14,346 nt of DNA from a virus (IMGVR_UViG_3300029496_000031:1-14346); one strand, 5' to 3'. Shown: positions 1 to 14,346, numbered from the stretch's first letter. The notes: generated by a model from the sequence alone, not told the origin. Numbers and translations: made by a program.

Positions 1-702
1 GTGATAGAAAACTCCTCATCTGCATGGCTCACCTTTGATGACCTGAACAACACAGAGACTTTTGATATAAAGGACTTCAGCGGCTGCTTTGGCGTAGGCG
101 GCGCCGACCTCTCTATCACAACAGACCTCACGTGCGCCACCATCCTCACCATGGACCGGAATAAGAAGCGGTATGTTTCACAGATGTACTGGCTCCCTGA
201 GGCGAATTTTGATAAGCGAGTCCATGAGGAAAAAATCCCCTATGACAAATGGCTGCAGATGGGACTCCTGAGACTCTGCAGCGGCAGCTCCATCAACTAC
301 CATGATGTCACACTGTGGTTTTTAGAGATGGTGCAGAAGGGAATCACACCGGCCTATATTTACTATGACTCCTACAGCGCCAAGTACTGGGTTGAAGAAA
401 TGCAGAATAATGGGTTTAATATGGTGAGATGTATCCAGGGCGCCAAGACGCTGAGTCTCCCCATGCAAGCCCTGGGCGTGGACCTGAAGGATAAGAAAGT
501 AAACTATAACAACTCGCCAATCCTGAAATGGTGCCTTTCCAATACCGGCATACTGACAGACCGGAACGGAAACATTGTGCCTATCAAGAACCAGAGCGCA
601 AAGTACAGGATTGATGGGACAGCCTCGCTGCTGGACGCCTATGTGGGCCTTACCGACCACTATGAGGAACTCTGCAATACCCTTCCCTATCAGAAAATTT
701 GA
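1..702 (+). CDS. terL: Terminase large subunit, C-terminal RNaseH-like nuclease part. It continues from 13300..14247 across the circular junction. Stop TGA at 700-702.
   Basis: Same frame as the 3' end of the window (positions 14248-14346 = 1-99). Acidic nuclease-type motifs (DLSITTDLTCATILTMDRN..., ...IDGTASLLDA) are typical of the terminase nuclease domain. Confidence 0.85.
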   Translation: MIENSSSAWLTFDDLNNTETFDIKDFSGCFGVGGADLSITTDLTCATILTMDRNKKRYVSQMYWLPEANFDKRVHEEKIPYDKWLQMGLLRLCSGSSINYHDVTLWFLEMVQKGITPAYIYYDSYSAKYWVEEMQNNGFNMVRCIQGAKTLSLPMQALGVDLKDKKVNYNNSPILKWCLSNTGILTDRNGNIVPIKNQSAKYRIDGTASLLDAYVGLTDHYEELCNTLPYQKI

Positions 703-716
703 AAGGAGAAACAGCC

Positions 717-1043
717 ATGAAACACCTGATTAAAGACAAGAAAATAGACCTCTATTACATGGAAAAGACACCGGACGGCCAAGGCGGATACAGGGCCGGA
801 TGGACACTGAAGGCACAGGGGCTATGGTGCTACACCAAGCAGCTCTCTGAAGAGCTCATTGCCAGATTTGCGACACTCAACCGCCAGGAGACCAGGCAAT
901 TTGTTATCAACCATCGTGAGATAGGAAACCCCAGCACAGTAAGAATCAAATACCGGGGGAACATGTACGCCATCACCAGAGTGGACACCAAGGACGACTA
1001 CAACGGCGATATTTTCCTATACGGCGATGTACTCAAGAAATAG
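717..1043 (+). CDS. Head closure / head-tail adaptor protein (SPP1 gp16 / HK97 head-closure family-like), 108 aa. ATG at 717 is preferred over the in-frame TTG at 699.
   Basis: RBS AAGGAG (703-708) 8 nt before ATG 717. Size and C-terminal pattern ...VRIKYRG..Y.I..VD....N.D..L.. resemble head-closure proteins. It is the last gene of the head module and is followed by a strong terminator. Confidence 0.5.
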   Translation: MKHLIKDKKIDLYYMEKTPDGQGGYRAGWTLKAQGLWCYTKQLSEELIARFATLNRQETRQFVINHREIGNPSTVRIKYRGNMYAITRVDTKDDYNGDIFLYGDVLKK

Positions 1044-1052
1044 AAGGAACAG

Positions 1053-1092
1053 GAAGAACGGATAGTATAAAAATATCCGTTCTTTTCTTTTG
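1053..1092 (+). terminator. Rho-independent terminator after the head module
   Basis: Perfect 11-bp stem AAGAACGGATA (1054-1064) / TATCCGTTCTT (1074-1084) with a 9-nt loop, followed by TTTTCTTTT. Confidence 0.75.
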
Positions 1093-1107
1093 CTTACTTT
1101 AGTAAAC
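1092..1107. promoter_or_regulatory. Palindromic site GCTTACT-TT-AGTAAAC upstream of parA (motif family C; second copy at 8217-8234). Candidate operator or parS-like centromere.
   Basis: Inverted repeat read directly. The right arm AGTAAACC is identical to the right arm of the 8217-8234 palindrome. Type Ib par loci usually place centromere/operator repeats upstream of parA. Confidence 0.35.
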
Positions 1108-1119
1108 CTAAAGAACATA

Positions 1120-1180
1120 GTGATATCTGAGTATAGAAAAAATTTATAATATTCAACCGTAGGGAAAAAGCATATAATAA
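1120..1180 (+). promoter_or_regulatory. AT-rich region with candidate sigma-A -10 hexamers (TATAAT at 1145-1150 and 1173-1178) for the parA operon
   Basis: Two TATAAT hexamers 60-90 bp upstream of the parA ATG. The -35 elements are weak, so the exact promoter is uncertain. Confidence 0.3.
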
Positions 1181-1235
1181 GACATGAAAAACCACAATGA
1201 TATATTGTAAACCATTTTTGAAAGGAAGGGAAGGT

Positions 1236-1979
1236 ATGAAGGTTATAAGCATTATGAACCAGAAAGGCGGCACAGGTAAAACCACAGTGACACTGAACCT
1301 GGCAGCCGCCTATGCGCTGGATGGAAGCCGTGTGCTCATGATGGACCTTGACAGCCAGGGCAGCCTCACAGCGGCCACCTGTGCCTTCAGTGAGCAGGAG
1401 CCATCTACCTATGAAGTCATTGCCGGAGATGTGAAATTGACAGACGCCATAAAAACGCTTAAAACAGGGCTTTCCATCGTTCCAACAGACAACAGGCTAT
1501 TACTTCTCAAGGAGACGGGAGAAGCACGCCAGAGGGGCCGAATCAAGCGAATTTTGAAGGGTATAGAGACAGATTATGATTATGTTTTCATTGACTGCCC
1601 CCCTCATCTTGCTATAGACACCATCATGGCCCTGTCTGCCTCAGACTATGCCATCATACCGGTGCAGACCAATTATCTATCAATGGCCGGGCTGGCCCAG
1701 ATGATGGATAGCATAAAATACCTTCAGGACAAAAACAAAGCGCTCCAAGTCGGAGCCATCGTGCCCACATTCGTGAGAAAGACCAACCTTGACCGCTATG
1801 TATTGTCATGTATCCGAGAGGTGTATCCTGATTTATTAACAGAATCGCATATCTCGCAATCCGTGCTTTTGGCAGAGGCACCGCTTTTCCAGAAAGATAT
1901 ATTTAGCTACAAGCCCCATAGCAAAGGCGCAAAGGAATTTACAGCGCTGCACAATGAACTGGTGCATAGGGGCATTTAA
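1236..1979 (+). CDS. parA: ParA/Soj-family partition ATPase (type Ib, no N-terminal HTH), 247 aa. Start at ATG 1236, not the upstream ATG 1197.
   Basis: Deviant Walker A NQKGGTGKTT. RBS GGAAGGGAAGG sits just upstream of ATG 1236. Length and motifs are typical of small plasmid ParA. Confidence 0.9.
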   Translation: MKVISIMNQKGGTGKTTVTLNLAAAYALDGSRVLMMDLDSQGSLTAATCAFSEQEPSTYEVIAGDVKLTDAIKTLKTGLSIVPTDNRLLLLKETGEARQRGRIKRILKGIETDYDYVFIDCPPHLAIDTIMALSASDYAIIPVQTNYLSMAGLAQMMDSIKYLQDKNKALQVGAIVPTFVRKTNLDRYVLSCIREVYPDLLTESHISQSVLLAEAPLFQKDIFSYKPHSKGAKEFTALHNELVHRGI

Positions 1980-2459: not shown

Positions 2460-2463
2460 AAAT

Positions 2464-2529
2464 GTTTCATAAATATTTCTTCTCCGTGCCTTTTGTGCTA
2501 TAATAAGGGTATAGAAACATTTATGAAAC
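2464..2529 (+). promoter_or_regulatory. Extended -10 promoter (TGcTATAAT, 2496-2504) flanked by inverted copies of a 16-bp motif GAAAC-ATTTAT-GAAAC (2464-2479 on the minus strand, 2514-2529 on the plus strand; motif family A). Putative operator/promoter of gene 2548.
   Basis: Read directly. One motif overlaps the -35 position and the other lies just downstream of the predicted TSS. The same motif recurs upstream of terS (12806-12837, 12947-12962). Confidence 0.5.
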
Positions 2530-2547
2530 ATGGAAGGAGCGGACATC

Positions 2548-3009
2548 ATGAAGAATTTAACCAAAGGAACCTCAATGACAGACTGGACGGACAAGGAGAT
2601 AGACTCCATCATGTGCGGATCCCCGGCAGAAGCCCTGAGCTACAAGGGGCCAGTGGAAGCCCTGGACAAAGAGAGGGAAAGAGTAACTGCCCTCATTGAG
2701 CAGCTCATGGGCTCAAAGGCTAAGGGAGTAAGCAAGGCAATCGACTTCCTGGAAACCTACCGGAGAATCCTATTTCTGAGAAGCCTCAGACTCAGGGAAG
2801 GCACAGAAGCTGCCCCCCGGAAGATCTACACAGTGAGGGACCTCTCAAACCGGTACGTTGTCAGCCTTCAGGCCATGACCGGCTGGCTCCGGCGCTATGA
2901 GAAGAGAATCAACGCCACCCGGCCGGAAAAGCCTCTCCTCTACAAAGAAGGCCGGGCCTGGGTAGTGACTGAGGAAGCGCTGCCCATCATTGACCATCTC
3001 CACAAATGA
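2548..3009 (+). CDS. Putative DNA-binding regulator with C-terminal HTH_17/excisionase-like helix-turn-helix, 153 aa
   Basis: RBS GGAAGGAG 8 nt before ATG 2548. The C-terminal segment IYTVRDLSNRYVVSLQAMTGWLRR...EGRAWVVTEEAL fits the HTH_17 (MerR/Xis-like) pattern. The operator-flanked promoter lies immediately upstream. Confidence 0.4.
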   Translation: MKNLTKGTSMTDWTDKEIDSIMCGSPAEALSYKGPVEALDKERERVTALIEQLMGSKAKGVSKAIDFLETYRRILFLRSLRLREGTEAAPRKIYTVRDLSNRYVVSLQAMTGWLRRYEKRINATRPEKPLLYKEGRAWVVTEEALPIIDHLHK

Positions 3010-3022: not shown

Positions 3023-3319
3023 ATGGATTTAAAGAAAATCGAGAAAGAGAAGAACAACATACTGAAGAAAGAGGCGCCAAAAAATGCGCCAGAAGCCGCC
3101 TCTAAGCCTTCCCGTGAAGAAGGGTATAGAAGAGCTACCTTCATTGTGCAGGAAAGGCTCCTAGACCTCTTCAACCTCTGGTGTGAATCGAATGGCTATT
3201 CAAAGAAATTTGCAATCAATAAACTTCTCTATGACGCCCTGTCTGGTAAGACAAAGGAAGTTGACCAGATGAGGGCCCAGAAGAAGGAAAATGAAAAAAT
3301 TTCTAATTTTGACTTTTGA
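3023..3319 (+). CDS. Small protein with a putative ribbon-helix-helix fold after a lysine-rich N-terminal tail (ParG/CopG/Arc-like), 98 aa
   Basis: RBS AAAGGA 8 nt before ATG 3023. The segment RRATFIVQERLLDLFNLWCESNGYSKKFAINKLLYDAL has the beta-strand plus two-helix layout of RHH proteins. Function (partition CBP or repressor) is inferred. Confidence 0.35.
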   Translation: MDLKKIEKEKNNILKKEAPKNAPEAASKPSREEGYRRATFIVQERLLDLFNLWCESNGYSKKFAINKLLYDALSGKTKEVDQMRAQKKENEKISNFDF

Positions 3320-3329: not shown

Positions 3330-3539
3330 ATGTTTGAATACGACGGAAAGAAATACTATACCTCAGATGAAGCGGCAGAGAGGCTGCACCGCAATCCTGT
3401 TACCATCCGCCGCCTCTGCAAAAGGGGCACCATTGAGGCGTTCAAATACGGCACCCACTGGCTGATGACCAAAGAGGCCATGGACAAATTTTTTTATGAG
3501 CATTGCTTGAAGATGAAGGAGGGCGAGCATGATGGATGA
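3330..3539 (+). CDS. AlpA/Xis-like HTH_17 DNA-binding protein, 69 aa. Start at ATG 3330, not the upstream in-frame ATG 3291.
   Basis: RBS GAGGA 7 nt before ATG 3330. The segment YYTSDEAAERLHRNPVTIRRLCKRGTIEAFKYGTHWLMTKEAMDKF matches the HTH_17 consensus. AlpA-like genes precede pri/rep genes in PICIs. Confidence 0.55.
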   Translation: MFEYDGKKYYTSDEAAERLHRNPVTIRRLCKRGTIEAFKYGTHWLMTKEAMDKFFYEHCLKMKEGEHDG

Positions 3540-5307
3540 AGCGTTAATGAAATACCTCAAACCCTCAGATGAAGCGGCGTATAAGAAGGAAATGGAGAAG
3601 GCACAGGGGGATTATGCAGCCGCTGAAGCCGCTATAAAGGGGGCTCTGGAAAACAGCCAGAATTTAGAAACCATAACCAAGCTGTCTACAAAGCTGGCAA
3701 GCTCCTCTACAAGAGTACTGGAAGTAGAGAACAAATATAAGAAGCTCGCACAGGAACACCGGAAGGCTGATGAAGGCGCAAATAGGAAAAAGTTTCTCAA
3801 GGCCATGCTTAAAAAAATGCGTGCATTAATCCCAGAAGCGTATGAGACCGCCCGTATCATGAATGACCTTGCGGTAAAGGGCAAGGTACCTGTGCCCACG
3901 GGAAAGGGATTTGACTGGTTTAAATCCGAGCTTAAAGAATCCATTGAAGAAATGGAAGCAAAAACATCGGAAAAGCCGGATAATGAATTGCTAAAAGCTA
4001 TTCTCTATGACTTGCATGTTCAGTATGAAAATTATCATGCACCATCTGATTATGTGTTCAGTCATTACCGACTTTATGCAGAATTTATTTACTCAGTATT
4101 CCCTGAGTATAATGAGCAAATTTTTTCAATACTTGAGGACATAGAGAAGAACTTCCCTGACGAATACCGAAAATTTGAAAGCGATCTCCTCGCCCTTCTG
4201 AATGAAAAAAATAAAATTGTAGAAGAATACCAGAGAAAGAAGAATCTGGAAAAAGTCAGAGATAATCTTCCCCGTGCGGGAGCAGTAATGCCGAATATTA
4301 TCGCCGTCGGGATAGACCATTTGCATAACAAAGTCTATAAAGAAGAAAGGATACCTTTCCTGACCGACAACAGGCCCACTCAAATTGAATGTACCGTAAA
4401 TAATCGCACCCAAAAAAAGATAATGTTTATGATAACAAGGAACCCGCACGATTATATGACCGATGAAGATAAGGAAGTCTTTACAAGGGCCGATATTGAG
4501 ATGTTTGATGACATCATCTCAAGTATTCCACAATCCTACAAAAGTAAAACATGCCTACATATCCCCATTAGCATAATAGCAAGAAATGCCTATCCACTCA
4601 GGGGGAACCAAAAGCGAAACGTAGGTAAAAAGTATCTGGACGAAACAGAAAAAAGAGTGCAGCTGCTACTTGATACAGAAATTGAAATAAAGGGCCTGGA
4701 AGCGTATCTGAACGCAAATACACTTGCAAATAATGAAGATATCCTCATGTTCATGAAAAACAAAGGCCGCTCCCGTCTCCTGGGCGGCTCCATTGACGAC
4801 GTTGTTATCAATGGCCAACTATCCAGAGTCCTTACACTGGATATGACACCCATTGTATGGGTAATAGCACGGGAAAAAGGCTATTACATCCCCCTAGCTA
4901 GAGATTTGAGAATACTCCCCCTGAAATGCCCGCTCTTTGTAAATAACCTCAGTAGGCGGCTTACGGTCCACCTTCTGGAAATGGTACGAAAAGGATTTAC
5001 ATACTGCCAGGTAAATATGGATAAGGTTTATGAATGGGCGGGAAAAACAGAAGCCATACAGAAGGCTAAGCAGCCCAGAAACATGAAAGCCAAATGCAGA
5101 AACTGGCTCTTCAAGCTGCTGGACTACTATATCAAGCTATGGAAAGAAGCAGATGAAGATAAGAGAAAAATTTTACTGCCGATCAAGGAATATGAACCCG
5201 TCAAAGGTGACAACCAAGAATTCACAGCGGTTAGAATAGAATTTTATCCCCATAGCTACCTCGAGAAAAAGAGCCCCAAAAGTATAGAACAAAAATTCGA
5301 CGACTAA
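3529..5307 (+). CDS. Large hypothetical protein (592 aa). The N-terminal ~130 aa is charged coiled-coil-like. The C-terminal region may be a winged-helix-like DNA-binding domain. Candidate iteron-binding replication initiator, by context only.
   Basis: Long ORF with RBS GAAGGAGGG. Its start overlaps the stop of the upstream gene (ATGATGGATGA). It is immediately followed by 22-bp iterons. No recognised catalytic motifs, and no tyrosine or serine recombinase signatures. Confidence 0.3.
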   Translation: MMDEALMKYLKPSDEAAYKKEMEKAQGDYAAAEAAIKGALENSQNLETITKLSTKLASSSTRVLEVENKYKKLAQEHRKADEGANRKKFLKAMLKKMRALIPEAYETARIMNDLAVKGKVPVPTGKGFDWFKSELKESIEEMEAKTSEKPDNELLKAILYDLHVQYENYHAPSDYVFSHYRLYAEFIYSVFPEYNEQIFSILEDIEKNFPDEYRKFESDLLALLNEKNKIVEEYQRKKNLEKVRDNLPRAGAVMPNIIAVGIDHLHNKVYKEERIPFLTDNRPTQIECTVNNRTQKKIMFMITRNPHDYMTDEDKEVFTRADIEMFDDIISSIPQSYKSKTCLHIPISIIARNAYPLRGNQKRNVGKKYLDETEKRVQLLLDTEIEIKGLEAYLNANTLANNEDILMFMKNKGRSRLLGGSIDDVVINGQLSRVLTLDMTPIVWVIAREKGYYIPLARDLRILPLKCPLFVNNLSRRLTVHLLEMVRKGFTYCQVNMDKVYEWAGKTEAIQKAKQPRNMKAKCRNWLFKLLDYYIKLWKEADEDKRKILLPIKEYEPVKGDNQEFTAVRIEFYPHSYLEKKSPKSIEQKFDD

Positions 5308-5383
5308 CAACAAACGAACACGGGACTAACAACAACCATACACGGGACTAACAACAACCCTACACGGGACTAACAACAACCAT
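5296..5383. repeat. Iteron array of three complete and one partial 22-bp direct repeats. Units ACACGGGACTAACAACAACC at 5318-5337, 5340-5359 and 5362-5381, with a partial unit at ~5296-5317 overlapping the 3' end of the upstream gene. Putative replication origin.
   Basis: Read directly. The period is exactly 22 bp, about two helical turns. The array sits at the 3' end of, and just downstream of, the 592-aa gene and upstream of the primase-helicase gene. Confidence 0.7.
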
Positions 5384-5453
5384 ACACACCCTCGAATCTC
5401 GAAAGCACGGTGAATACTGGCAGAAATGGCATTTTTCAGGGGCCCACTATTAT

Positions 5454-5527
5454 ATGTATACTCTGTATACATTGTATCCGGCCCTTGCCCGCAAGGCTGG
5501 CGCCCTTGCGGGCTGGCGGGCCGCCGC
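5454..5527. repeat. Ori-associated structures. An AT palindrome ATGTATAC-TCT-GTATACAT (5454-5472; motif family B) is followed by a GC-rich island. The island holds a 10-bp stem hairpin GCCCGCAAGG (5487-5496) / CCTTGCGGGC (5504-5513) and an imperfect 21-bp direct repeat (5482-5502 / 5503-5523).
   Basis: Read directly. The local GC content is far above the element average. Both ORFs called here (5410-5604 plus strand, 5326-5529 minus strand) are low-complexity and implausible. Confidence 0.5.
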
Positions 5528-5632
5528 ATAAACTAGATTTAGTGAAAAGAGCTCATCATCATCCCCGTGCTTTTTCTATCCGGAAAGAAGAAGCGCTCCA
5601 ATGAACCTGTTTTTTACCATAGGGAGTTTAAC

Positions 5633-8005
5633 ATGAAGGAAAACGACATAGTAAAAGAATATCGATTCAAGAAAGTATGGACAAACTTTTCCATTCTGGA
5701 AGTTGACGGACGTAAAACGAAAATACCAGTGAACCCTTATAACAGTCAGAACGGCAGCACAACTAACCCAAATAGCTGGAGCACCTATGACAAAGCCATG
5801 GAGAAAATCGGCCAACCGTGCTTTCTCTATTCTAAGAAGGCCAAAAGGCACTACCGGGGAACCATAGACGGCATAGGGATAGTGTTCACCGGCTGTGACT
5901 TAATGGGCCTCGACTTTGACCATGTACTGGATGAATCCGGAAACCTTGACCCGGCAGTGAAGGCCATTGTAGAAAAGGCTAATTCCTATACTGAAATCTC
6001 CCCATCCGGCCATGGGCTCCATATCCTGGCTAAAGGGAAACGCCTTGAACCGACCGGAGCGCAGAGAGTGTCTAAAGGAGAAACCTCAAAAGGAACTACA
6101 CCGGCCCCCTGTGAAATTGAATTTTATGACACTAGCAGATACTTTACTTTCACCGGCAAGGAATACTCCATCAGCAGCCCCCTGGCAGAGCGCACCAAGG
6201 AATTTGATGAGATTTACAGAACGTACATGAAGGTAAAAAAGGCGGAGATACCTACACCCGTCACCGTGCCTTCTCTACCTAAAAGCAGCAAGCCTCTGAC
6301 TGTTTCCGAAGTGCTGGATAAGATGCTTAAAGCGAGCGGCAGAATGGGGGAGATTAACAGGAAGCTTTATGCCGGTGATATTGATATCCCTGAGTATTAC
6401 CATACAGATGGGGAGCACCAGGGAGAACCTGATAAAAGCAAATGCGACCTTCATCTGGCAATGTCCGCCTATTATTTCTCAAATCTGGATGACAACATTA
6501 CCCGGCAGATTATGAATAGCAGCGGCCTTTATGACAGTAAATGGGAGGAAGGGGGGCACTGGACAACAGACCCCAAAAGGGCCGGGCTCTCCTGGATTGA
6601 GGGCACTATGGTAATCGCCCGTGAAAAAGCTGCTGCCCGTCTTGCCAAGGATCAGCAGAAGAACCGTATGACGGAAAGTTTTAAAGATAAATGGATTACA
6701 GACATGCAGAAAAGAGTTATCTTTAATCTTAATGAGAGTATGCCACAACTGAAGGAAGCCCTTAAGAAAATATTGAATAACCGCCTTTCTGAATTGACTA
6801 TCCAGGATGGGGACATTGTGAAAGAGCTCTATGACGTAGCTCATTATGAATTGAATCCTTTTGCTCCGAAACCTCTTCCCAAGCCTAAAGAAGTCTCCAT
6901 GACGGATTACCTTAAAACGGGAGAGCTGGAAAACAGAATTGCCTACTTTGCAAAGTACAAGGACCGGAAAACCGGATACAAGAACCTTGACCAGTATCTC
7001 ACCCTCTATCCGGGCCTTGCCATCCTGGGTGCTGTGCCTTCTCTGGGAAAAACAACCTTCTGCATGAACCTGGCTGAGAATCTTGTAAGGTCCGGCAACA
7101 CTGTGCTTTATATCGCATTGGAACAGGATCCCATGGAACTGGCCACCAAGGTGCTCGCTAGAAATATCTTTGAAAGATATGGTGATAAAACAGGGCTCAC
7201 CAACATTGATATCAAAAATGGGAAATCTGACAAATACCTGGACCTGGTAAAGGCTGAAATGGCTAAGAATCTCTCAGGACTTCACCTGGTGAAAGGGAAT
7301 TTCAACACCACTGTGGAAGATATTGTTGAACTTATTGACGACTTTATAGCTACCCGGAAAGTGACACCCATAGTATTTATTGACTATCTGCAGCTCATCG
7401 CTCCATCATCCGCTGAGAAGTCTGACGACGGAGTGGACTATAGAAGCCGCACGCAGAGAGAAATCTGTGACCACTCGCTGAAGGTGCTGAAGTCTTACCA
7501 GATGAAGGACCCTGACACTTCCCTATTAATCTGGCTTGTTTCCTCTTTTAACCGTAACAGCTACCAGGCACCGGCTGATTATAGCTCCTTCAAAGAAACC
7601 GGCGGTATTGAATACACCTGTGATTATGTATTCGCTCTGCAGCCTTCTGTCATGAGTGAGGACTCATATTTCTATAAAGAATCCAAGACAAAGAGCGGCG
7701 GCGTAACTCAGAAAGAAACCACCAACTATGAAAGACAGAAGAAATTTGAGGACGCTGTAAAAGGCCAGCCAAGGGACAGCAAGGATAGACCAATAAGCGG
7801 CCTAAAGAATTACCGTGAAATCCAGTTTAAGAGTATCAAGAACCGGAACGGCATGCAGAAATTCAACGCCTTTTTCCGTTACCATCCGGCCGCTGATTCT
7901 TTTGTAATCTCGACCGCATACGGCGCCAGTGACTATCCGGTAGAAGCCTCTGATTTCACGGACGACCAGGCAGATGAGGAAAGCCTGGATGACCTTTGGG
8001 AGTAA
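5633..8005 (+). CDS. Bifunctional primase-polymerase (AEP/prim-pol N-terminal domain) fused to a DnaB-like helicase ATPase domain, 790 aa. Start at ATG 5633.
   Basis: RBS AGGGAG 6 nt before ATG 5633. Prim-pol motifs K.P (KIPVNP), DxD (GLDFDH) and sGxGlH (SPSGHGLHIL). The C-terminal half has Walker A GAVPSLGKTT and a DnaB-type Walker B IVFIDYLQLI. Confidence 0.75.
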   Translation: MKENDIVKEYRFKKVWTNFSILEVDGRKTKIPVNPYNSQNGSTTNPNSWSTYDKAMEKIGQPCFLYSKKAKRHYRGTIDGIGIVFTGCDLMGLDFDHVLDESGNLDPAVKAIVEKANSYTEISPSGHGLHILAKGKRLEPTGAQRVSKGETSKGTTPAPCEIEFYDTSRYFTFTGKEYSISSPLAERTKEFDEIYRTYMKVKKAEIPTPVTVPSLPKSSKPLTVSEVLDKMLKASGRMGEINRKLYAGDIDIPEYYHTDGEHQGEPDKSKCDLHLAMSAYYFSNLDDNITRQIMNSSGLYDSKWEEGGHWTTDPKRAGLSWIEGTMVIAREKAAARLAKDQQKNRMTESFKDKWITDMQKRVIFNLNESMPQLKEALKKILNNRLSELTIQDGDIVKELYDVAHYELNPFAPKPLPKPKEVSMTDYLKTGELENRIAYFAKYKDRKTGYKNLDQYLTLYPGLAILGAVPSLGKTTFCMNLAENLVRSGNTVLYIALEQDPMELATKVLARNIFERYGDKTGLTNIDIKNGKSDKYLDLVKAEMAKNLSGLHLVKGNFNTTVEDIVELIDDFIATRKVTPIVFIDYLQLIAPSSAEKSDDGVDYRSRTQREICDHSLKVLKSYQMKDPDTSLLIWLVSSFNRNSYQAPADYSSFKETGGIEYTCDYVFALQPSVMSEDSYFYKESKTKSGGVTQKETTNYERQKKFEDAVKGQPRDSKDRPISGLKNYREIQFKSIKNRNGMQKFNAFFRYHPAADSFVISTAYGASDYPVEASDFTDDQADEESLDDLWE

Positions 8006-8125: not shown

Positions 8126-8131
8126 GGCTAA

Positions 8132-8209
8132 AACAGCCAGGAAAGGTACATAGACTGGGGAATGATATCAGAGATTGACAGGCTCTCTTATGGGCCTGTT
8201 TTTCTTTTG
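8132..8209 (+). ncRNA. Candidate small RNA (~75-80 nt) running from the 8117-8125 promoter to a terminator-like hairpin
   Basis: The promoter's -10 ends at 8125. A 6-bp stem ACAGGC (8178-8183) / GCCTGT (8194-8199) is followed by TTTTTCTTTTG (8199-8209). There is no ORF with an RBS in between. Confidence 0.25.
8178..8209 (+). terminator. Weak rho-independent terminator-like hairpin plus U-tract in the primase-to-head-module intergenic region
   Basis: Stem ACAGGC/GCCTGT with a 10-nt loop, followed by a T-rich run. Confidence 0.4.
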
Positions 8210-8216
8210 TGTAAAA

Positions 8217-8234
8217 GGTTTACTGTAGTAAACC
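8217..8234. promoter_or_regulatory. Perfect palindrome GGTTTACT-GT-AGTAAACC (motif family C; related copy at 1092-1107 upstream of parA)
   Basis: 8-bp perfect inverted arms read directly. It lies ~50 bp upstream of the second TGgTATAAT promoter. Confidence 0.45.
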
Positions 8235-8282
8235 ATGGTAATTTTCAGTATATCTGTATTCCTTTCAAATATGTTTCTATTA

Positions 8283-8291
8283 TGGTATAAT
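8283..8291 (+). promoter_or_regulatory. Extended -10 promoter TGgTATAAT (-35-like TTTCAA at 8263-8268). Likely promoter of the head-morphogenesis operon (8348 onward).
   Basis: Read directly. It has the same TTATGGTATAATG core as the 8113-8126 promoter, and the next gene starts ~55 bp downstream. Confidence 0.45.
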
Positions 8292-8347
8292 GTAAGTAAC
8301 AAAGTTTTATGTTAAATGCAAAAGGAAATGAAAGGAAGGGAAAGAAA

Positions 8348-8695
8348 ATGGAAGAACAGAAAGAAAATGAAGTGCATGAAAGTACTGAAAAAACTGTTTC
8401 AAGAAATTTAGGTAAAACAATCGTAGTGAGACATCTCAGAATCAGGAAGTATATTATTGGTGACTCTGCCAGCAGTACAGCAAAGACCATTTTTAACGCA
8501 GAAATCCCCACATACTTTGCCCTTCCTGGCATGTTCACCTACATTGATCCCCGTTATCCTTCTATTGTCCGATTTGTAAATATGGCTGATGTTCTTGAAA
8601 TCGGAATGGACGTCAACAATATGAGTGATTTCCTCAATCTCCGCACACTTATGTTACGCAATAAGGAGGTGCCTTTCTTCAGATGGCCGAGGTAA
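8348..8695 (+). CDS. Hypothetical protein (115 aa), first gene of the morphogenesis operon. Start at ATG 8348.
   Basis: RBS AAGGAAGGG 7 nt before ATG 8348. No recognisable motifs. Confidence 0.45.
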   Translation: MEEQKENEVHESTEKTVSRNLGKTIVVRHLRIRKYIIGDSASSTAKTIFNAEIPTYFALPGMFTYIDPRYPSIVRFVNMADVLEIGMDVNNMSDFLNLRTLMLRNKEVPFFRWPR

Positions 8696-8967
8696 ACAGA
8701 ACTAAAGTGACAGCAGAATATATCATGCTGCTGGCCCATCGAAACAGACCGGATGAACCGGCCATGACCATGCTCAACCACCCTACCATCCTTCTGGATC
8801 ATCCCGTTATCAAGGGCATGCTCCCAGTGGTTACAGATAGGCTGCCGAATGATGTGAAATATATCCGCATTGATGAAATCAAGGCCCTGGGATTTAAGAA
8901 GGGAGACCTTGAATCTATGGCCCTGGTAGCTGAAGCATTTGACTGGGCCGTGCCTTCTGCCGACTGA
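8683..8967 (+). CDS. Hypothetical protein (94 aa), overlapping the previous gene by 13 nt. The start is uncertain.
   Basis: ORF on the same strand as the whole operon. AAGGAGG at 8663-8669 is 13 nt from ATG 8683 (long spacer). The minus-strand ORFs overlapping here are rejected. Confidence 0.35.
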   Translation: MAEVNRTKVTAEYIMLLAHRNRPDEPAMTMLNHPTILLDHPVIKGMLPVVTDRLPNDVKYIRIDEIKALGFKKGDLESMALVAEAFDWAVPSAD

Positions 8968-8981: not shown

Positions 8982-10172
8982 GTGAATTTCCTTTCCCGAA
9001 TCTTTAGCCGGAAAGCGACAGCAACCGGCACAAAGCTCATAAATGAAAATACCGGGCGATTCACAGCCTACGATGGAAATATCTATGAAAATGATATTTT
9101 CCGGGCTGGTGTGGACGCCATCGCTAGAAATTGCGGAAAGCTGAAGGGCTCCCATATCGTCATATCAGGCGATGATAGAGCCCAGGGGGACAGCCGTATC
9201 AACCGTATTTTACAGATACGGCCTAACCCGTACATGAGCGCCTATGATTTCCTGTATAAGATGGTGACTCACCTCTATATCGACAATAACGCCTTTGCGC
9301 TCCTCTCCTTCAATGCACAGGGGCAGCTTGACGCCATTTATCCCATCACGGCCACCAGCGTGCAGGTGCTGAGAGACGCCACGGGCTCCCTCTACTGTGC
9401 CTTCACCATGCCGGACGGCGGCAGATTTACCTTTGCCTATGACAACCTCATACATCTGAGGCGGTTTTTCAATTCCAATGACGTACTGGGAGACGGCAAC
9501 GGCGCAATCAGGCCAGGGCTTGAACTCGCCCAGGCCCAGAATGATGGAATCATCAACGGCATTAAGAGCGGCGCCAGTATCCGGGGGATACTGAAATACA
9601 CCACAGTCATGGCTCCTGAGCAGCTGAAGAAAGATAAAGACCGCTTTATAGCCGACTATCTTGATGTATCGAACAATGGCGGCGTGGTAGCGACCGATAC
9701 AAAAGCCGAATATACGCCCATTGAATCCCATCCCGTGACTGTATCCGGCGATGAGATGAACGCTGCAAAGAGCAAGATTTTCAACTATCTGGGAGTCACA
9801 GAGCCAGTAGTAAATTCCAGTTACACAGAAGATCAGTTTTCTGCTTTTTACGAATCCACCATAGAGCCCATTGCTATGGCCCTTTCCCAGGAAATGACCT
9901 ACAAGATTTTCACCGCCCGTGAAATTGCCTTTGGCAACCAGATTATTTTTGAATCTGGAACCATCCAATTCACATCCAACAAGACGAAAATCAACCTGAT
10001 AAGCAACATGCTCCCCTATGGCGTTCTTACCATCAACCAGGCGCTTGAAATCCTGAACCTTCCCTCTGTGCCGGATGGTGACAGGCGGCTCCAGGCCCTC
10101 AACATGATTGACGCCCAAAAGGCGCTCAAGTACCAAGTTGGGGAACAGCAGGAAGGAGAGAAGGAAGAATGA
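8982..10172 (+). CDS. Portal protein, HK97 family (396 aa), GTG start
   Basis: RBS GAGAAGG 7 nt before GTG 8982. Sequence features typical of Phage_portal (ILQIRPNPYMSAYDFLYKMVTHLYIDNNAFALL...). Size ~400 aa. It immediately precedes the prohead protease. Confidence 0.85.
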   Translation: MNFLSRIFSRKATATGTKLINENTGRFTAYDGNIYENDIFRAGVDAIARNCGKLKGSHIVISGDDRAQGDSRINRILQIRPNPYMSAYDFLYKMVTHLYIDNNAFALLSFNAQGQLDAIYPITATSVQVLRDATGSLYCAFTMPDGGRFTFAYDNLIHLRRFFNSNDVLGDGNGAIRPGLELAQAQNDGIINGIKSGASIRGILKYTTVMAPEQLKKDKDRFIADYLDVSNNGGVVATDTKAEYTPIESHPVTVSGDEMNAAKSKIFNYLGVTEPVVNSSYTEDQFSAFYESTIEPIAMALSQEMTYKIFTAREIAFGNQIIFESGTIQFTSNKTKINLISNMLPYGVLTINQALEILNLPSVPDGDRRLQALNMIDAQKALKYQVGEQQEGEKEE

Positions 10173-10729
10173 AAGAAAAGCGATTCGCAAAAATCGAGAT
10201 CAGAAGCGATAACAGCAAGCAGCTGGTACTCACCGGACGGCCGGTGATTCTTAACCAGCCCACTGTTATCGCTGAAGATTATAAGGAAGTCATTGCTCCC
10301 GGTGCTCTGGACGGCACGGACTTGACAGATGTCAGGCTTTTATACAACCATGACCTGTCCACCGTGCCTTTAGCCAGGACGCCCAAGACAATGGCTCTCA
10401 CAGTCGACCCGGCAGGGCTGACATTCACCGCTACACTCCCAGATACGGAATACGGCCGCACCGTTTACGAAGCTGTGAAGCGTGGCGATTTATCCGGCAT
10501 GAGCTTTAGCTTTAAGGTACCGGAAGGGGGAGACTCTTATGATCCGGCCACAAACACCCGGACCATCACCAAGATTGAAAAAATCTATGAGTGCTCCATT
10601 GTGCCTTTCCCAGCGTATCCCCAGACATCGGTAGAAGCCAGGGACGCCATCAAGGCCGGCAGGACAAGATGGAAAGCAAAACAGCATGCTAAACTGCTTA
10701 TTCACCAGATTATGAAAGTGAGGTTTTAA
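10169..10729 (+). CDS. Prohead maturation protease, HK97 family (Peptidase S78/U35), 186 aa
   Basis: ATG overlaps the portal stop (GAATGA). Family-typical sequence (LLYNHD..., GDLSGMSFSFKV) and canonical position between portal and major capsid protein. Confidence 0.8.
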   Translation: MKEKRFAKIEIRSDNSKQLVLTGRPVILNQPTVIAEDYKEVIAPGALDGTDLTDVRLLYNHDLSTVPLARTPKTMALTVDPAGLTFTATLPDTEYGRTVYEAVKRGDLSGMSFSFKVPEGGDSYDPATNTRTITKIEKIYECSIVPFPAYPQTSVEARDAIKAGRTRWKAKQHAKLLIHQIMKVRF

Positions 10730-10731
10730 CC

Positions 10732-11949
10732 ATGAAATTCAAGACTATTGCTGAAGCATTTAACTACTACAGAAACCACAGCGCCGCTGATATTGAAAAG
10801 AGAGCGGCAGCCATCAATGAACTCATTGAAAAGGACCCCAGCGCCGATATTGACGCCCTCAACATCGAACTGGAAGGACTGAAACAGGCCAAGGAAAACC
10901 TGGAACAGCGTGCCCAGAAATTCAAGCACACTGAAGGAGCTCCCCTTTCCGGTGGCATGCAGCCCCGGCAGCAGGTACTCACTCCTGAAAATGTATTCGA
11001 CTCCAAGGAATATAGAAGCGCATTTTTCAAGAATCTGATGGGCCGCAGCCTGAACGCCCAGGAAAAAGAAGCCTTCACCATGGCCCAGGGAGTAGTGGAA
11101 AAGCGTGCCGGTACATTCATTTCTGCAACGGACGCCGCAGCCGTGCTGCCGACCACCACCCTCAATGAAATCATTAAGAAAGCACGGACCATGGGCGGCC
11201 TTCTCCCAGAAGTGCGCTCTTTCTCCGTGCCTTCTAAAATTGCTATCCCGGTAGCGACACCTACCAATAAAGCAGCCTGGCATGTAGAAGGTGCTGAAGT
11301 CGCTGCAGATAAAGCAGCACTCTCCTCTGTTATCTTTGACCCTAATGAGCTCATCAAGGTTTTCTCCCTCTCTGCAAAAGCAAGCACCATGAGCATTGCA
11401 GCATTTGAGGCGTACCTGGTGGATGAACTCTCCGCTTGCGTGATGGACGCCCTGGATGATTCTCTCATTAATGGCACCGGTGCAGGCCAGGGCAAAGGAC
11501 TGGAAAAAGGAATCACCTGGAACGCAGACAACACAGTAACCACCTCTGCCCTCTCCTATGCAGATATCGTTTCCCTCATCGCCAAACTGAAGAGAGGTTA
11601 TTCCAACGGCGCCAAGTTTGCAATGAATAATGCAACACTCTACACCAAGATTTACGGACTGGTAGACGGCAATAAGAGACCTATCTTCATTACAGACGCC
11701 CAGAACCAGACTGTGGGCAGAATCCTTTCCTTCCCGGTAATCGTGGATGACAACATCCCGGATGATGTTATCTACTTTGGTAACTTCAAGGCCTACCTGG
11801 GATACAATCTGCCGGAAGGTATCATGATTGAATCCTCTCGTGCCTCTTCCTTCAAGCAGGGGCTGATTGACTACAGAGCGCTGGCGATCGCCGACACCCA
11901 GCCGCTTGTAACAGAAGCATTTGTAAAGCTGACCAAGACTGCAGGCTGA
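10732..11949 (+). CDS. Major capsid protein, HK97 fold, with an N-terminal coiled-coil delta/scaffolding region, 405 aa
   Basis: RBS AGTGAGG 8 nt before ATG. The N-terminal ~100 aa is coiled-coil (AAINELIEKDP...LEGLKQAKENLEQRAQKF), followed by an HK97-like body. Position after the protease and a strong terminator after the gene. Confidence 0.85.
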   Translation: MKFKTIAEAFNYYRNHSAADIEKRAAAINELIEKDPSADIDALNIELEGLKQAKENLEQRAQKFKHTEGAPLSGGMQPRQQVLTPENVFDSKEYRSAFFKNLMGRSLNAQEKEAFTMAQGVVEKRAGTFISATDAAAVLPTTTLNEIIKKARTMGGLLPEVRSFSVPSKIAIPVATPTNKAAWHVEGAEVAADKAALSSVIFDPNELIKVFSLSAKASTMSIAAFEAYLVDELSACVMDALDDSLINGTGAGQGKGLEKGITWNADNTVTTSALSYADIVSLIAKLKRGYSNGAKFAMNNATLYTKIYGLVDGNKRPIFITDAQNQTVGRILSFPVIVDDNIPDDVIYFGNFKAYLGYNLPEGIMIESSRASSFKQGLIDYRALAIADTQPLVTEAFVKLTKTAG

Positions 11950-12022: not shown

Positions 12023-12292
12023 ATGACATTGGAAGAAGCGTGCAACGTATTGAGAGTAGACCCAGGAACAAATGACGATTTAATCAACAGCCTTATAAAG
12101 GCCATTCCATCCTACATTGAACTGAAAACCGGAATGACGGAAAAGGCACAGGAAAATGAGCCGCTTGTAAAAACAGTATCCGGCTTTATTCTGCAGCTGT
12201 GGTATTTTAGCGACAACATTGATGATAAAGTATTGAACCGGACTATTGACTCCCTTCTCTGTGCCATCACACTGAAGGCAAAACAGGAGTGA
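12023..12292 (+). CDS. gp6-like head-tail connector (Phage_connect_1-like), 89 aa
   Basis: RBS AAGGAG 8 nt before ATG. The N-terminus MTLEEACNVLRVDPGTNDDLINSLIKAIPSYIELKTG is typical of the phage gp6/DNA-packaging head-tail connector family. Position after the major capsid protein. Confidence 0.55.
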   Translation: MTLEEACNVLRVDPGTNDDLINSLIKAIPSYIELKTGMTEKAQENEPLVKTVSGFILQLWYFSDNIDDKVLNRTIDSLLCAITLKAKQE

Positions 12293-12303
12293 AGGTGAGG
12301 AGA

Positions 12304-12356
12304 GCGCATTTACATGTCTGAGAAAATCTCAGACATACATGCGCCGCCAGAGGCGG
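12304..12356. promoter_or_regulatory. Long imperfect hairpin (GCGCAT..ACATGTCTGAG-AAAAT-CTCAGACAT..ATGCGC) plus a small GC hairpin (CCGCC-AGA-GGCGG) just upstream of the HNH gene RBS
   Basis: Read directly. There is no downstream U-tract, so it is not a canonical terminator. Possible processing, attenuation or protein-binding element. Confidence 0.3.
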
Positions 12357-12372
12357 AAAGGAGCAAGCCATC

Positions 12373-12756
12373 ATGACCAGAAAAGACTTCTACAACAGCA
12401 AAGAATGGAAACGCACAGCAAGGGCCTATCTGCAATCGCAGCACTATGTGTGCGAGCGATGCGGAAGGCCGGCAGTCATCTGCCACCATAAGAAATACCT
12501 CAATGACAGGAACTACACTGATCCGGCTGTCTCCCTGTGCTTTGATAATCTGGAAGCACTCTGCCAGGACTGCCACAACAAAGAGCACAGCCTGAGGAGG
12601 CCGCTGGTAAAGTTTGATGAGGAAGGCAACGTGACCGGCTGCAAAGAATCAAAAGACCAAAGAGATTTCAGGCTGGAAAGGGAAGCCATGGAAAAGCTTT
12701 TTAAGAGAGAGAATTCACTACAGGCCCTCTCAGAGCGCTTGCGCAGAAGTTTATGA
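12373..12756 (+). CDS. HNH endonuclease (packaging-associated), 127 aa
   Basis: RBS AAAGGAG 9 nt before ATG. Cys/His zinc-finger HNH motifs CERCG...HH...CQDCHNKEH. It sits next to terS-terL, as in HK97-like cos phages. Confidence 0.85.
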   Translation: MTRKDFYNSKEWKRTARAYLQSQHYVCERCGRPAVICHHKKYLNDRNYTDPAVSLCFDNLEALCQDCHNKEHSLRRPLVKFDEEGNVTGCKESKDQRDFRLEREAMEKLFKRENSLQALSERLRRSL

Positions 12757-12931
12757 GTAATTTATCAAAAGATTTTCTGCAGCGCCTCTGAGACGATTTT
12801 AGAGTATTTCATAAAAGTTTCGAAACATTTATGAAAAAGGGAAGGGGGCCTCTCAAATTTTTTCTCTGAAATCCATACCGGCGTCAGCACCTCGGAAAAC
12901 CTCTCCCAGGATTTCCCCATAAGGGGGACAA
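12757..12931. other. HNH-terS intergenic region, a candidate DNA-packaging (cos/pac) recognition region. It contains a 32-bp near-perfect palindrome ATTTCATAAAAGTTTC|GAAACATTTATGAAAA (12806-12837; motif family A) and an inverted repeat GAAATCC (12868-12874) / GGATTTC (12909-12915).
   Basis: Repeats read directly. The positional argument is that cos sites of HNH-dependent phages lie next to the HNH/terS genes (established knowledge). The assignment itself is inference. Confidence 0.3.
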
Positions 12932-13294
12932 ATGGAAAAACCTATGGAAACATTTATGAAAGATGGTGAAACAAGCATGAAAATCAATAGGACATACACC
13001 GATATTTACAACCTCATACCGGAACAGAAGCAGCCAATAGCCAGGAAGCTCATCAATGAACTCCAATTCATGGAAAGGACTCTCACGGCCCTAAGAAAAG
13101 TGGTGGACTCTGAAGGAGTCACTGAACATTTTATTAATGGGAAACAGGATTTCTGGCGTGAAAGCACGGCCCTAAAGAGCTACAACACCACAATCCAGCG
13201 GTACAGCTCCCTTTCCAAGCAGCTCACAGACATGGTTGATAAGACAGCAGAGGCAGAGAATAATCCGGTGCTGGACTTCATCAAAGGGGAGTGA
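12932..13294 (+). CDS. terS: Terminase small subunit (P27-family-like), 120 aa from ATG 12932. An alternative start at ATG 12977 gives 105 aa (MKINR...).
   Basis: Small ORF immediately upstream of terL and downstream of HNH. SD AAGGGGG lies only 4 nt before ATG 12932, and a weak GGTGA lies 7 nt before ATG 12977. The 5' end overlaps a third copy of motif A (12947-12962). Confidence 0.55.
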   Translation: MEKPMETFMKDGETSMKINRTYTDIYNLIPEQKQPIARKLINELQFMERTLTALRKVVDSEGVTEHFINGKQDFWRESTALKSYNTTIQRYSSLSKQLTDMVDKTAEAENNPVLDFIKGE

Positions 13295-13299
13295 TCCCC

Positions 13300-14346
13300 G
13301 TGAATTTCATTGAGGAATACCTTGAGGCCATTCACCGGGGGGATGTAGTCACCTCTAAAAGAGTGAAAGAAGTGTATGAACGCCTTGCCTCTGAGATAGC
13401 GCACCCGGATAAATACATCTTTGACCAGAAGAAGGCAGAGAGGCCCATAGAATTCATAGAACGCTTTTGCAAGCAGTCTAAAGGAGAATGGGCCGGGCGG
13501 CCTCTTAAGCTCATGCTCTTTCAAAAAGCCTTCCTCTCTGCGCTCTTTGGATTCATTGATAAAGGCACGGGATACCGGAGATTTAACGAAACCATGCTAT
13601 ATGTAGCTCGCAAAAATGGGAAGTCTGTGCTTTTATCCGGCATTGCCCTCTACTGCCTCATCTGTGATGAACCGGGGGCAGAAGTATACAGCGTGGCCAC
13701 CAAAAAAGACCAGGCTAAAATTGTGTTCAATGAAACAGTGAACATGGCCAAGCAGTCACCGGCGCTCATGAAAGCCGGAATCAAGAAGCGAAAAACAGAC
13801 CTGTATTTTCCCTACACCATGAGCAAATTCGCTCCCCTGGGAAAGAACAGCGATACCCTCGACGGCCTCAACGCCTCACTTGTAATCATGGACGAACTGC
13901 ACAGCATAAAGGACCGGAACCTCTATGAAGTCATGAAGCAGAGCCAGAGCGCCAGGCGGCAGCCGCTCCTGGTGATGATAACCACTGCAGGCACCTTCAG
14001 AGAAACCATCTTTGATGACATGTATAAATACGCCTCACAGGTGGCAGATGGTACTATCCAGGATGACCATTTTCTCCCCGTGCTTTATGAACTGGACGCA
14101 AAGAACGAATGGAAGGATCCCGAAAACTGGCAGAAGGCCAATCCCGGCCTGGGGACCATAAAGAAACTGGATGACCTGGTGCAGAAATGCAAGCGTGCCA
14201 AAGATAACCCGGTAGACCTCACAGGCGTGCTTGTAAAGGACTTCAACGTGATAGAAAACTCCTCATCTGCATGGCTCACCTTTGATGACCTGAACAACAC
14301 AGAGACTTTTGATATAAAGGACTTCAGCGGCTGCTTTGGCGTAGGC
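13300..14346 (+). CDS. terL: Terminase large subunit, N-terminal ATPase part. It continues across the circular junction into 1-702. GTG start at 13300. Full gene ~549 aa (13300..14247 joined to 1..702).
   Basis: Walker A-like ARKNGKS and Walker B LVIMDELH motifs typical of Terminase_1-family ATPase domains. It lies immediately downstream of terS. RBS AAAGGGGAG sits 9 nt upstream of the GTG. Confidence 0.85.
   Translation, partial: MNFIEEYLEAIHRGDVVTSKRVKEVYERLASEIAHPDKYIFDQKKAERPIEFIERFCKQSKGEWAGRPLKLMLFQKAFLSALFGFIDKGTGYRRFNETMLYVARKNGKSVLLSGIALYCLICDEPGAEVYSVATKKDQAKIVFNETVNMAKQSPALMKAGIKKRKTDLYFPYTMSKFAPLGKNSDTLDGLNASLVIMDELHSIKDRNLYEVMKQSQSARRQPLLVMITTAGTFRETIFDDMYKYASQVADGTIQDDHFLPVLYELDAKNEWKDPENWQKANPGLGTIKKLDDLVQKCKRAKDNPVDLTGVLVKDFNVIENSSSAWLTFDDLNNTETFDIKDFSGCFGVG

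Follow-up and report, generated by a model that had tools for sequence, protein, structure and literature searches.

A probable capsid-forming, tail-less satellite plasmid of human-gut Bacillota with its own predicted initiator-iteron replicon

Our analysis concerned a 14,346-nucleotide stretch of viral DNA (IMGVR_UViG_3300029496_000031:1-14346; "the window" hereafter, at its full length), which carries its own capsid and packaging genes together with plasmid-type replication and partition genes. Taken together, the evidence suggests that the element is probably a capsid-forming, tail-less satellite plasmid of human-gut Bacillota that borrows the tails of a helper phage, with a member of the Clostridia such as Lachnospiraceae as its probable host. 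The initial annotation, made from the sequence alone, had read the window as a satellite phage-plasmid and had considered this lifestyle undescribed. The reading itself fits what we found, namely a family of relatives confined to contigs of 14.7 kb or less, iterons that co-vary with the predicted initiator, and purifying selection. Its novelty has to be given up, as capsid-forming phage-inducible satellite-plasmids (cf-PISPs) have been published in 2025/2026 for Vibrio, a marine genus, and so far for no other (bioRxiv 10.1101/2025.10.10.681744; Nat Commun 2026, PMC13230959). Judging from its sequence, the window appears to belong to a separate lineage of capsid-forming satellite plasmids, found in human-gut Bacillota and equipped with a new initiator-iteron replicon. 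Since this replicon is unrelated to theirs, the gut lineage probably arose independently of the Vibrio cf-PISPs.

The element is a closed circle. Bases 1-99 of the window are an exact copy of bases 14248-14346, and this 99-nt terminal repeat is best read as an assembler overlap, so that the true unit is a circle of 14,247 bp. Its junction falls inside the gene for the large terminase (TerL), near residue 319, and is spanned by the nuclease-domain match in Pfam (residues 256-533). The same circle was recovered with 0 mismatches from ENA assembly ERZ917678 (human gut; k127; 14,374 bp with a 127-nt overlap) and from ERZ27272252 (k119; 14,366 bp with a 119-nt overlap), and a Logan contig from run ERR1190565, the run behind ERZ917678, measures 14,277 bp (14,247 + 30). 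The unit has thus closed at k = 99, 119 and 127, and flanking DNA was present on none of these contigs. Repeats can also produce terminal k-mer overlaps, and a fragment of a larger phage or chromosome could in principle have been wrongly circularised. We consider such an assembly artefact very unlikely, since identical closure without extra DNA was obtained in several assemblies at three k values, the join gives back an intact TerL domain, and sister elements close likewise. The self-contained 14.2-kb circle that had been proposed to close within a conserved gene is therefore borne out.

Eighteen genes were called, and all 18 lie on the + strand, in agreement with the initial annotation. They fall into two blocks, each ended by a strong hairpin-plus-U terminator (Table 1): block 1 (1197-8005) contains the replication and partition genes and block 2 (8309 across the junction to 1043) the head and packaging genes. 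Families were assigned by protein searches against Pfam, PHROGs and NCBIfam. The gene set expected from the first reading was recovered by family matches for HNH, TerL, portal, protease, capsid, connector and head closure; the small terminase (TerS), also part of that set, is assigned by position and conservation only. The putative TerS is encoded between HNH and TerL, is present in most relatives that have TerL, and matches phrog_1066 (3e-26), a PHROG of unknown function. The start position of TerL was taken from the gene calls of L080, and the head-closure protein scored 0.003 against TIGR01563, which is under the curated cut-off. Approximately 136 residues of the capsid protein lie ahead of its Pfam match and may form a delta-like domain. 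The HNH protein is predicted to be a packaging accessory of the kind used in HNH-dependent cos systems, and the position of the spacer between HNH and terS makes it a candidate cos region.

Table 1. Features of the 14,346-nt window, listed by position (a dot marks features given without a strand).
Feature	Position	Strand	Evidence or remark
Assembler overlap	1..99	.	identical to 14248-14346; marks circular closure
TerL, second part	1..702	+	bases 1-99 duplicate window end
Head completion/closure protein, SPP1 gp16/Hc1 type	717..1043	+	PF05521 2.5e-8; phrog_25 4.8e-9
Intrinsic terminator, end of head/packaging operon	1052..1091	+	13-bp stem + U-run; -15.8 kcal/mol; z = -4.65
Palindrome GCTTACTTTAGTAAAC, candidate operator or centromere-like site upstream of parA	1092..1107	.	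one of two copies
ParA partition ATPase	1197..1979	+	AAA_31 7e-44; CbiA 4e-20; phrog_164 ParA-like 1e-50
Two paralogous small proteins, 77 and 73 aa	1999..2459	+	no family match
Inverted pair of 15-mer GAAACATTTATGAAA, candidate operator upstream of 159-aa gene	2462..2531 (sites 2465-2528)	.	95% complementary inverted repeat
159-aa protein	2530..3009	+	no family match
Putative ribbon-helix-helix DNA-binding protein	3023..3319	+	motif alignment
AlpA/excisionase-like HTH_17 protein	3330..3539	+	PF12728 1.6e-11; TIGR01764 3.6e-8; excisionase PHROGs
591-aa orphan protein, predicted iteron-binding initiator	3532..5307	+	no family match
Four tandem 22-bp iterons GACTAACAACAACCATACACGG	5302..5389	.	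begin at orphan gene's stop codon
Remaining putative origin	5390..5632	.	conserved spacer; A+T-rich TGTATAC repeats 5455-5477; G+C-rich hairpin 5479-5523
AEP primase-polymerase/DnaB-family helicase fusion	5633..8005	+	phrog_13901 (primase) 1e-42; DnaB_C 4e-16
Head-operon control region	8101..8291	+	extended -10 promoter, terminator, palindrome, second promoter
Hairpin terminator in head-operon control region	8177-8200	+	z = -4.9
Palindrome GTTTACTGTAGTAAAC	8218-8233	.	between 8177-8200 terminator and second promoter
Other 15-mer GAAACATTTATGAAA sites	8263-8277; 9076-9090; 12807-12836 (two 15-mers); 12947-12961		
Two proteins, 128 and 94 aa, head of block 2	8309..8967	+	no family match
Portal	8982..10172	+	PF04860 5e-54; phrog_12 4e-70
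Prohead serine protease S78	10169..10729	+	PF04586 1e-35
HK97-fold major capsid protein	10732..11949	+	PF05065 7e-39, residues 137-401
gp6-like head-tail adaptor	12023..12292	+	PF05135 7.6e-5; phrog_40 (adaptor Ad1) 3.5e-8
HNH endonuclease	12373..12756	+	PF01844 2.5e-6; phrog_119 8e-19
HNH-terS spacer, candidate cos/operator region	12757..12955	.	30-bp near-palindrome 12807-12836
Putative small terminase TerS, 112 aa	12956..13294	+	position and conservation only
TerL, first part	13300..14346	+	PF03354 (ATPase) 3.8e-39; PF20441 (nuclease) 5.7e-37

Selection on these genes was estimated against L084, a sister element whose main head/packaging proteins are 82-89% identical to those of the window. 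The ratio of nonsynonymous to synonymous substitution rates (dN/dS) was 0.06-0.22 for TerL, portal, protease, capsid, adaptor, HNH, TerS, closure, ParA and primase-helicase, with a value of 0.13 for the capsid protein. Such low ratios indicate that the head genes are under selection and are not degenerate, and that the element is not a decaying remnant. They also bear on the view that the window is a decaying phage-plasmid, or a plasmid with a domesticated head module, that has no satellite transmission or makes tail-less particles for some other purpose. Complete phages with the same head-gene order exist, which makes an ancestral loss of tails plausible, and no helper is known. Nevertheless, all head and packaging genes are intact, and the tail-less 13-15 kb format recurs in many diverged lineages (50-70% amino acid identity) with adaptor and closure proteins kept, as would be expected if the heads must still dock onto tails. 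On balance, decay or domestication is an improbable explanation.

Searches for the functions that a phage or an integrative island would carry were negative. No integrase or other recombinase was found in the Pfam, PHROGs and NCBIfam searches, and a six-frame tblastn with 33 serine and tyrosine recombinases of related elements returned nothing (all E > 0.1). Tail, holin and lysis families were likewise without a match in the three collections, and the called proteins contain no transmembrane-like segment (highest 19-residue Kyte-Doolittle mean, 1.41). The lack of integrase, tail and lysis genes that was noticed at the outset therefore holds under these searches. PADLOC matched no defence genes, and a tRNA scan and an Rfam search (E up to 1) gave nothing meaningful.

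What the element does encode is a plasmid-type partition and replication module. The true start of ParA is likely the ATG at 1236, which gives a protein of 247 aa. ParA possesses a deviant Walker A motif (KGGTGKT) at residue 23; its length of 247-260 aa without an N-terminal helix-turn-helix (HTH) domain places it in the type Ib size class. The product of 3023-3319 aligns to the small protein encoded next after ParA in 6 related elements, sharing the motif RATFIV...LKDYAYT, and is probably a ribbon-helix-helix (RHH) protein that would serve as a ParG/omega-like partner of ParA. Of the features of a type Ib partition system, the size and motif of ParA are present; the RHH partner is predicted from the motif alignment, and two repeated motifs are candidates for the centromere. 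The last gene of the block encodes the primase-helicase, which has the AEP motifs LDFDH at residue 115 and SGHGLH at residue 147; PF22763 (NrS1-1_pol-like_HBD) was detected on the primase-helicases of relatives.

Between these genes lie the orphan protein and the iterons. The orphan has no match in Pfam, PHROGs or NCBIfam, and a profile of its family gave nothing meaningful against PDB sequences. Tandem Repeats Finder reported 3.9 copies of the 22-bp unit (5302-5387). The type-Ib-size ParA, iterons and prim-pol/DnaB helicase expected from the first reading are all present, as recognised by family matches, motifs and repeat detection. In iteron theta replicons with type Ib partition (e.g., pSM19035 delta/omega and TP228 ParF/ParG), an A+T-rich stretch comes after tandem repeats of about 22 bp by the initiator gene, and a small ParA of the Walker type is paired with a small RHH protein. 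The sequence features of such replicons, tandem iterons beside a predicted initiator gene and an adjoining A+T-rich region, are found in the window. Compared with them, the predicted initiator is unrelated to described Rep families, and the window has its own prim-pol/DnaB helicase. No RepA-family protein was found, and we infer that the orphan with its iterons is the analogue.

Relatives argue for this assignment. All 11 of the 11 ParA-type loci in which the spacer between initiator and primase was read have tandem repeats that start at most a few bases from the orphan stop codon; there are 2-5 copies (mostly about 4) of 21-23 bp (32 bp in L028), and their sequence varies between elements. 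Short A+T-rich repeats follow the iterons in 5 of these 11 loci. The origin flanks are conserved in the sisters where they were read, though the iterons differ. The clearest case is L079, whose head genes are 98-100% identical to those of the window. In orphan protein and iterons, L079 sides with L084: the protein shares 91% identity with the L084 orphan but only 32% with the window's, and the repeat is CATACAGAACGGGCATACAGGA, as in L084, in place of the window's GACTAACAACAACCATACACGG. The iterons therefore change together with the orphan protein, which suggests that initiator and iterons move as one specificity cassette. Based on these comparisons, the orphan and its iterons behave as expected of a Rep-iteron pair, and the orphan is probably the initiator. 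The L079 contig itself (SRR10692578, 14,356 bp) is that of a mosaic sister, in which identity to the window falls to 66% in TerS and 52% in the 159-aa protein, and the mosaic indicates recent cassette exchange inside the clade. A centromere was also considered for the iterons. We judged it less likely than an origin because in relatives they always lie between the orphan gene and the primase-helicase, with A+T-rich repeats after several of them. The G+C-rich hairpin of the putative origin was not significant against shuffles (z = -1.5), and no clear origin or terminus could be read from the cumulative GC skew of the window.

Scans with the capsid protein identified about 100 loci in IMG/VR and GTDB genomes, and their head/packaging modules are mostly 50-70% identical to that of the window, with gene order kept. 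These modules are carried on three groups of backbones: serine-recombinase integrative, tyrosine-recombinase integrative and episomal ParA. The first has a large serine recombinase, an XRE-type regulator, a rolling-circle Rep and a sigma-like factor. The second has a tyrosine integrase, and a few of its members also have a detectable relative of the window's primase-helicase. Both integrative types fit the published design of phage-inducible chromosomal islands that form capsids (cf-PICIs); they were found on 37-155 kb contigs of Oscillospiraceae, Roseburia, Facklamia and other Clostridia, and on a complete 2.3-Mb chromosome of Aerococcaceae (Bacillota). The episomal backbone consists of ParA, an RHH-like protein, a 340-630-aa orphan, iterons and the primase-helicase, without a full-length integrase. 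Approximately 17 relatives are of this ParA type (L005, L006, L019, L025, L027, L028, L059, L060, L064, L079, L083, L084, L088, L107 and L109-L111), with the common order closure protein - ParA - RHH - orphan - iterons - primase-helicase - portal. All of their contigs are 7.5-14.7 kb long and none is chromosomal. Terminal overlaps were verified for L019, L084 and L110, the names of L084 and L088 carry assembler flag 3 (taken to mean a looped contig), and the L005 contig ends inside its own iteron array. L079, L083 and L084 are the sisters of the window.

All relatives come from Bacillota genomes or metagenomes except the L092 contig, which was binned to a Bacteroidaceae metagenome-assembled genome (MAG); L088 shares a bin with a Lachnospiraceae MAG, which gives a weak hint of the host. 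In a neighbour-joining tree of TerL, which has no support values, the ParA types form several groups apart from the serine-recombinase clade, and L019 is nested among tyrosine-integrase types. This pattern suggests exchange of backbones. Closer matches were not found in reference collections. A whole-circle megablast against INPHARED phages and PLSDB plasmids gave no match, and a tblastn with the capsid protein reached at best 35% identity in phages and 28% in PLSDB plasmids, which indicates that no close relative is deposited there. The PLSDB search with the capsid protein returned no Vibrio record, scanning JGI metagenome contigs (two patterns) and IMG/VR for exact words gave nothing, and no close relative of the window's primase-helicase was found in IMG/VR.

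Several observations on individual relatives deserve mention. L108 (SRR33574433; 13,941 bp; 6 samples) is capsid-less and has ParA, a small protein, a 509-aa orphan, 21-bp iterons and the primase-helicase; a full tyrosine integrase is encoded as well, as are several Lar-like proteins (restriction alleviation). The presence of the backbone on this capsid-less element fits a plasmid replicon that became joined to a head module. L012, L013 and L017 (IMG/VR, 24-35 kb) are complete siphophages with the order portal, protease, capsid, adaptor, HNH, TerS, TerL, closure, sigma-like factor, major tail protein, tape measure and Dit, and they also carry a serine integrase and a rolling-circle Rep. They plausibly show the origin of the head module and what a tail donor might resemble, and they are plausible donors themselves. 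In the TerL tree they lie on short branches beside the tail-less L023, L024, L049 and L097 (the last an island of about 13 kb), so tail loss there may be recent. A tyrosine recombinase of about 183 aa, made up of the catalytic domain only, is encoded in the head module of L064 (12033-12584), L109 (9395-9943), L110 (9977-10525), L007 and L039, directly upstream of the terS position. The window is without one, and the protein may be a dimer resolvase. In L109, L110 and L111, an XRE-type HTH gene and an M78 (ImmA-like) peptidase gene form a pair upstream of a Toprim-type primase-helicase, which hints at a regulatory switch unlike that of the window.

With the relatives in view, we could weigh two further explanations of the circle. 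According to the first, the window is an integrative cf-PICI-like island caught excised and replicating, for which the host (Xer) or the helper phage would provide the recombinase in trans. The nearest architectural cousins are indeed integrative, an excisionase/AlpA-like HTH protein is encoded, and metagenome circles do not separate excised from episomal forms. However, no recombinase was found in any frame, and the ParA, RHH and iteron replicon provides maintenance functions that would be superfluous to an island. Moreover, contigs of the approximately 17 ParA-type relatives do not exceed 14.7 kb, a length that those of integrase types often surpass, and the AlpA-type HTH proteins of PICIs are transcriptional regulators (PMC10085698). 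We therefore consider an excised island unlikely.

According to the second, the window is a non-lysogenic satellite or mini-virus that is never stably carried, like Streptomyces MiniFlayer, and the circle is a replicative intermediate. Its lack of an integrase and possession of its own replication and head genes would agree with this, and a precedent is given by the account of capsid-encoding satellites that enter along with their helper (PMC10690885). Against it, the ParA/RHH module and the iteron origin are hallmarks of stable low-copy upkeep, the same backbone occurs on a capsid-less element, and the head operon has its own terminator-bounded control region apart from the maintenance operon. 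This explanation, too, appears unlikely.

Based upon these observations, we propose the following course of events for a tail-borrowing satellite plasmid. In the carrier state the element would be a circular low-copy replicon. The orphan protein would bind the four iterons, open the adjoining A+T-rich stretch and recruit the element's own prim-pol/DnaB helicase, and the type Ib ParA with its small RHH-type partner would segregate the copies. The head operon would probably remain off in the absence of helper-phage activity and, when turned on, would build the element's own small heads. These would package unit-length 14.2-kb DNA through an HNH-dependent cos mechanism and be capped by the adaptor and closure proteins, and a siphovirus helper would supply tails and lysis functions. 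The capsids of P4 and SaPI1 are T=4, as cited in a published paper, and by analogy with the similar genome size of these satellites the heads of the window might be T=4 as well. The plasmid state, the initiator role, helper dependence, the trigger and capsid size are thus predictions of the model. A more extensive version joins several of these ideas: a diverse gut-Bacillota lineage of satellite plasmids, of independent origin from the Vibrio cf-PISPs; a new replicon with orphan initiators, swappable initiator-iteron cassettes and a prim-pol/DnaB protein; a head module repeatedly moved between integrative and episomal backbones; and a helper that switches the head operon by read-through of a promoter-terminator element. 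We offer this combination tentatively, as having slightly less than an even chance of being right in all its parts.

A number of points weigh against the satellite-plasmid interpretation. A circle or concatemer from lytic replication would assemble identically, and the plasmid state in the cell is a prediction. No helper phage or induction signal was identified, and no centromere was assigned to the partition system beyond the two candidate repeated motifs. The element is also rare, its identical proteins being present on 4 contigs. With respect to the predicted initiator, HMMER profile searches of 1.84e9 representative proteins with the orphan family recovered its own two clusters and no others. 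The profile link between its C-terminal half and the orphan proteins of other ParA-type elements is weak (74%, E 2.8e-5). Its AlphaFold2 model, from a 3-sequence alignment, had a predicted local distance difference test (pLDDT) score of 47.6 and no recognisable fold; a score this low makes the model too poor for a fold search. The AlphaFold2 model of the putative TerS (pLDDT 72) matched no PDB fold at E < 0.6. Finally, five small proteins are without annotation, and a lysis or recombination function could still be hidden among them.

The closest parallel by description is the cf-PISP of Vibrio crassostreae, a 15.8-kb circle with parA and repA and no integrase, for which plasmid carriage and transfer in its own capsids on helper tails were proposed, and whose authors found relatives only within Vibrio (bioRxiv 10.1101/2025.10.10.681744; PMC13230959). 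Like cf-PISP TG54, the window is a small circle with capsid, portal, protease, adaptor, closure, HNH and terminase genes, with parA and a replication module, without tail genes or integrase, and with the same proposed lifestyle. In contrast, the host of TG54 belongs to the Gammaproteobacteria and the relatives of the window to the Bacillota. Of the two, only TG54 carries repA, genes for a ProQ/FinO-like protein and an Stl-like regulator, and, within its head module, a tyrosine recombinase; only the window carries the predicted orphan initiator with iterons, an AlpA/Xis-like HTH gene and the prim-pol/DnaB helicase, and it is without a recombinase. Given its Bacillota relatives, its other replicon and the TG54 genes that it lacks, the window is unlikely to be a homologue of the cf-PISP and is rather similar in kind. 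The recombinase of about 183 aa in the gut relatives echoes the 'distinct tyrosine recombinase' of the Vibrio head module.

The window also shares much with cf-PICIs. It has the head/packaging set of HK97 head genes, adaptor, closure, HNH and TerL, with morphogenesis genes preceding hnh-terS-terL as in the cf-PICIs of Proteobacteria. A primase-type replication gene and an AlpA-like regulator are present, and tail and holin genes, which are forbidden components in SatelliteFinder, are absent. In size and gene number it is near the median of 14 kb and 19 proteins reported in a survey of 969 cf-PICIs, which placed 3 on plasmids and identified no integrase for 48 (PMC10085698). However, the window has no integrase or chromosomal attachment and does have ParA, an RHH protein and an iteron origin; as neither an integrase nor a chromosomal location was found, we do not regard it as a cf-PICI. 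Phage-plasmids (P1, N15 and SSU5 types, and those of Clostridioides difficile) similarly unite, on one extrachromosomal replicon, phage structural genes and functions for plasmid partition and replication, but they are complete phages of at least 30 kb with tail and lysis genes. The window, at 14.2 kb and without either, is therefore not a phage-plasmid. Satellite P4 resembles it in its possible plasmid state, its own primase-helicase and its small capsid, but P4 has an integrase, builds its heads from the capsid protein of its helper P2 rather than from its own, and is usually integrated (PMC10085698).

These findings indicate that in the window and its approximately 17 relatives, in Gram-positive gut bacteria, the integrase has been replaced by partition and iteron replication and a private head factory has been kept, which adds to the ways in which phages are known to mediate gene transfer in the microbiome. 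Circular contigs of 13-15 kb that are annotated as 'complete phage' in gut viromes may be satellites, and SatelliteFinder-type models that expect an integrase will under-call such elements. The initiator, iterons, primase-helicase and ParA also make up a compact, testable replicon for Clostridia, which are poor in genetic tools.

With regard to control of the element, two repeated motifs and one promoter-terminator layout provide leads only. The 15-mer GAAACATTTATGAAA has 7 sites in the window against 0.04 expected, most of them in inverted pairs, and 6 of the 7 lie in or border three intergenic regions, namely those before the 159-aa gene, before the head operon and around the HNH-terS spacer. 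The site at 8263-8277 covers the -35 of the best promoter ahead of the head operon, that at 12947-12961 runs into the TerS start, and sites are found at syntenic places in the sister elements. The 15-mer may serve as an operator recognised by a DNA-binding protein of the element, or as an omega-like joint operator/centromere. Omega itself has repeated operator-like sites at several promoters, and the window likewise. The palindrome GTTTACTNTAGTAAAC has 2 sites (4 strand-matches against 0.24 expected), one after each terminator and before the next promoter, and could be a centromere or the site of a late-gene regulator. Its copy at 8218 is kept in L079, L083 and L084. Similar palindromes were observed in the more distant ParA-type elements L019 (at 5546) and L088 (at 4775).

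In the head-operon control region, the hairpin terminator follows the strong extended -10 promoter within about 50 nt, and the layout is conserved in the three sister elements, of which L083 and L084 lack 47 nt of the short transcript. The region could be a small RNA gene or an antitermination switch. Its layout recalls the antitermination of late genes in lambdoid phages, and by this analogy one might speculate that it is a point of helper action.

The remaining observations concern minor genes. The 159-aa protein of block 1 is divergent among the sisters (52% identity) and is possibly a regulator. The 94-aa protein of block 2 is 100% identical in L079. The two small paralogues at 1999-2232 and 2238-2459 are 31% identical to each other (E 2e-8) and have in common the motif ...AAF..G...G..ATEKG. 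Two long antisense open reading frames, of 326 aa at 9210-10190 (-) opposite the portal gene and of 459 aa at 10726-12105 (-) opposite the capsid gene, had no family matches; they were treated as spurious and are probably by-products of composition. The AT skew is strongly positive along the whole + strand (0.03-0.30).

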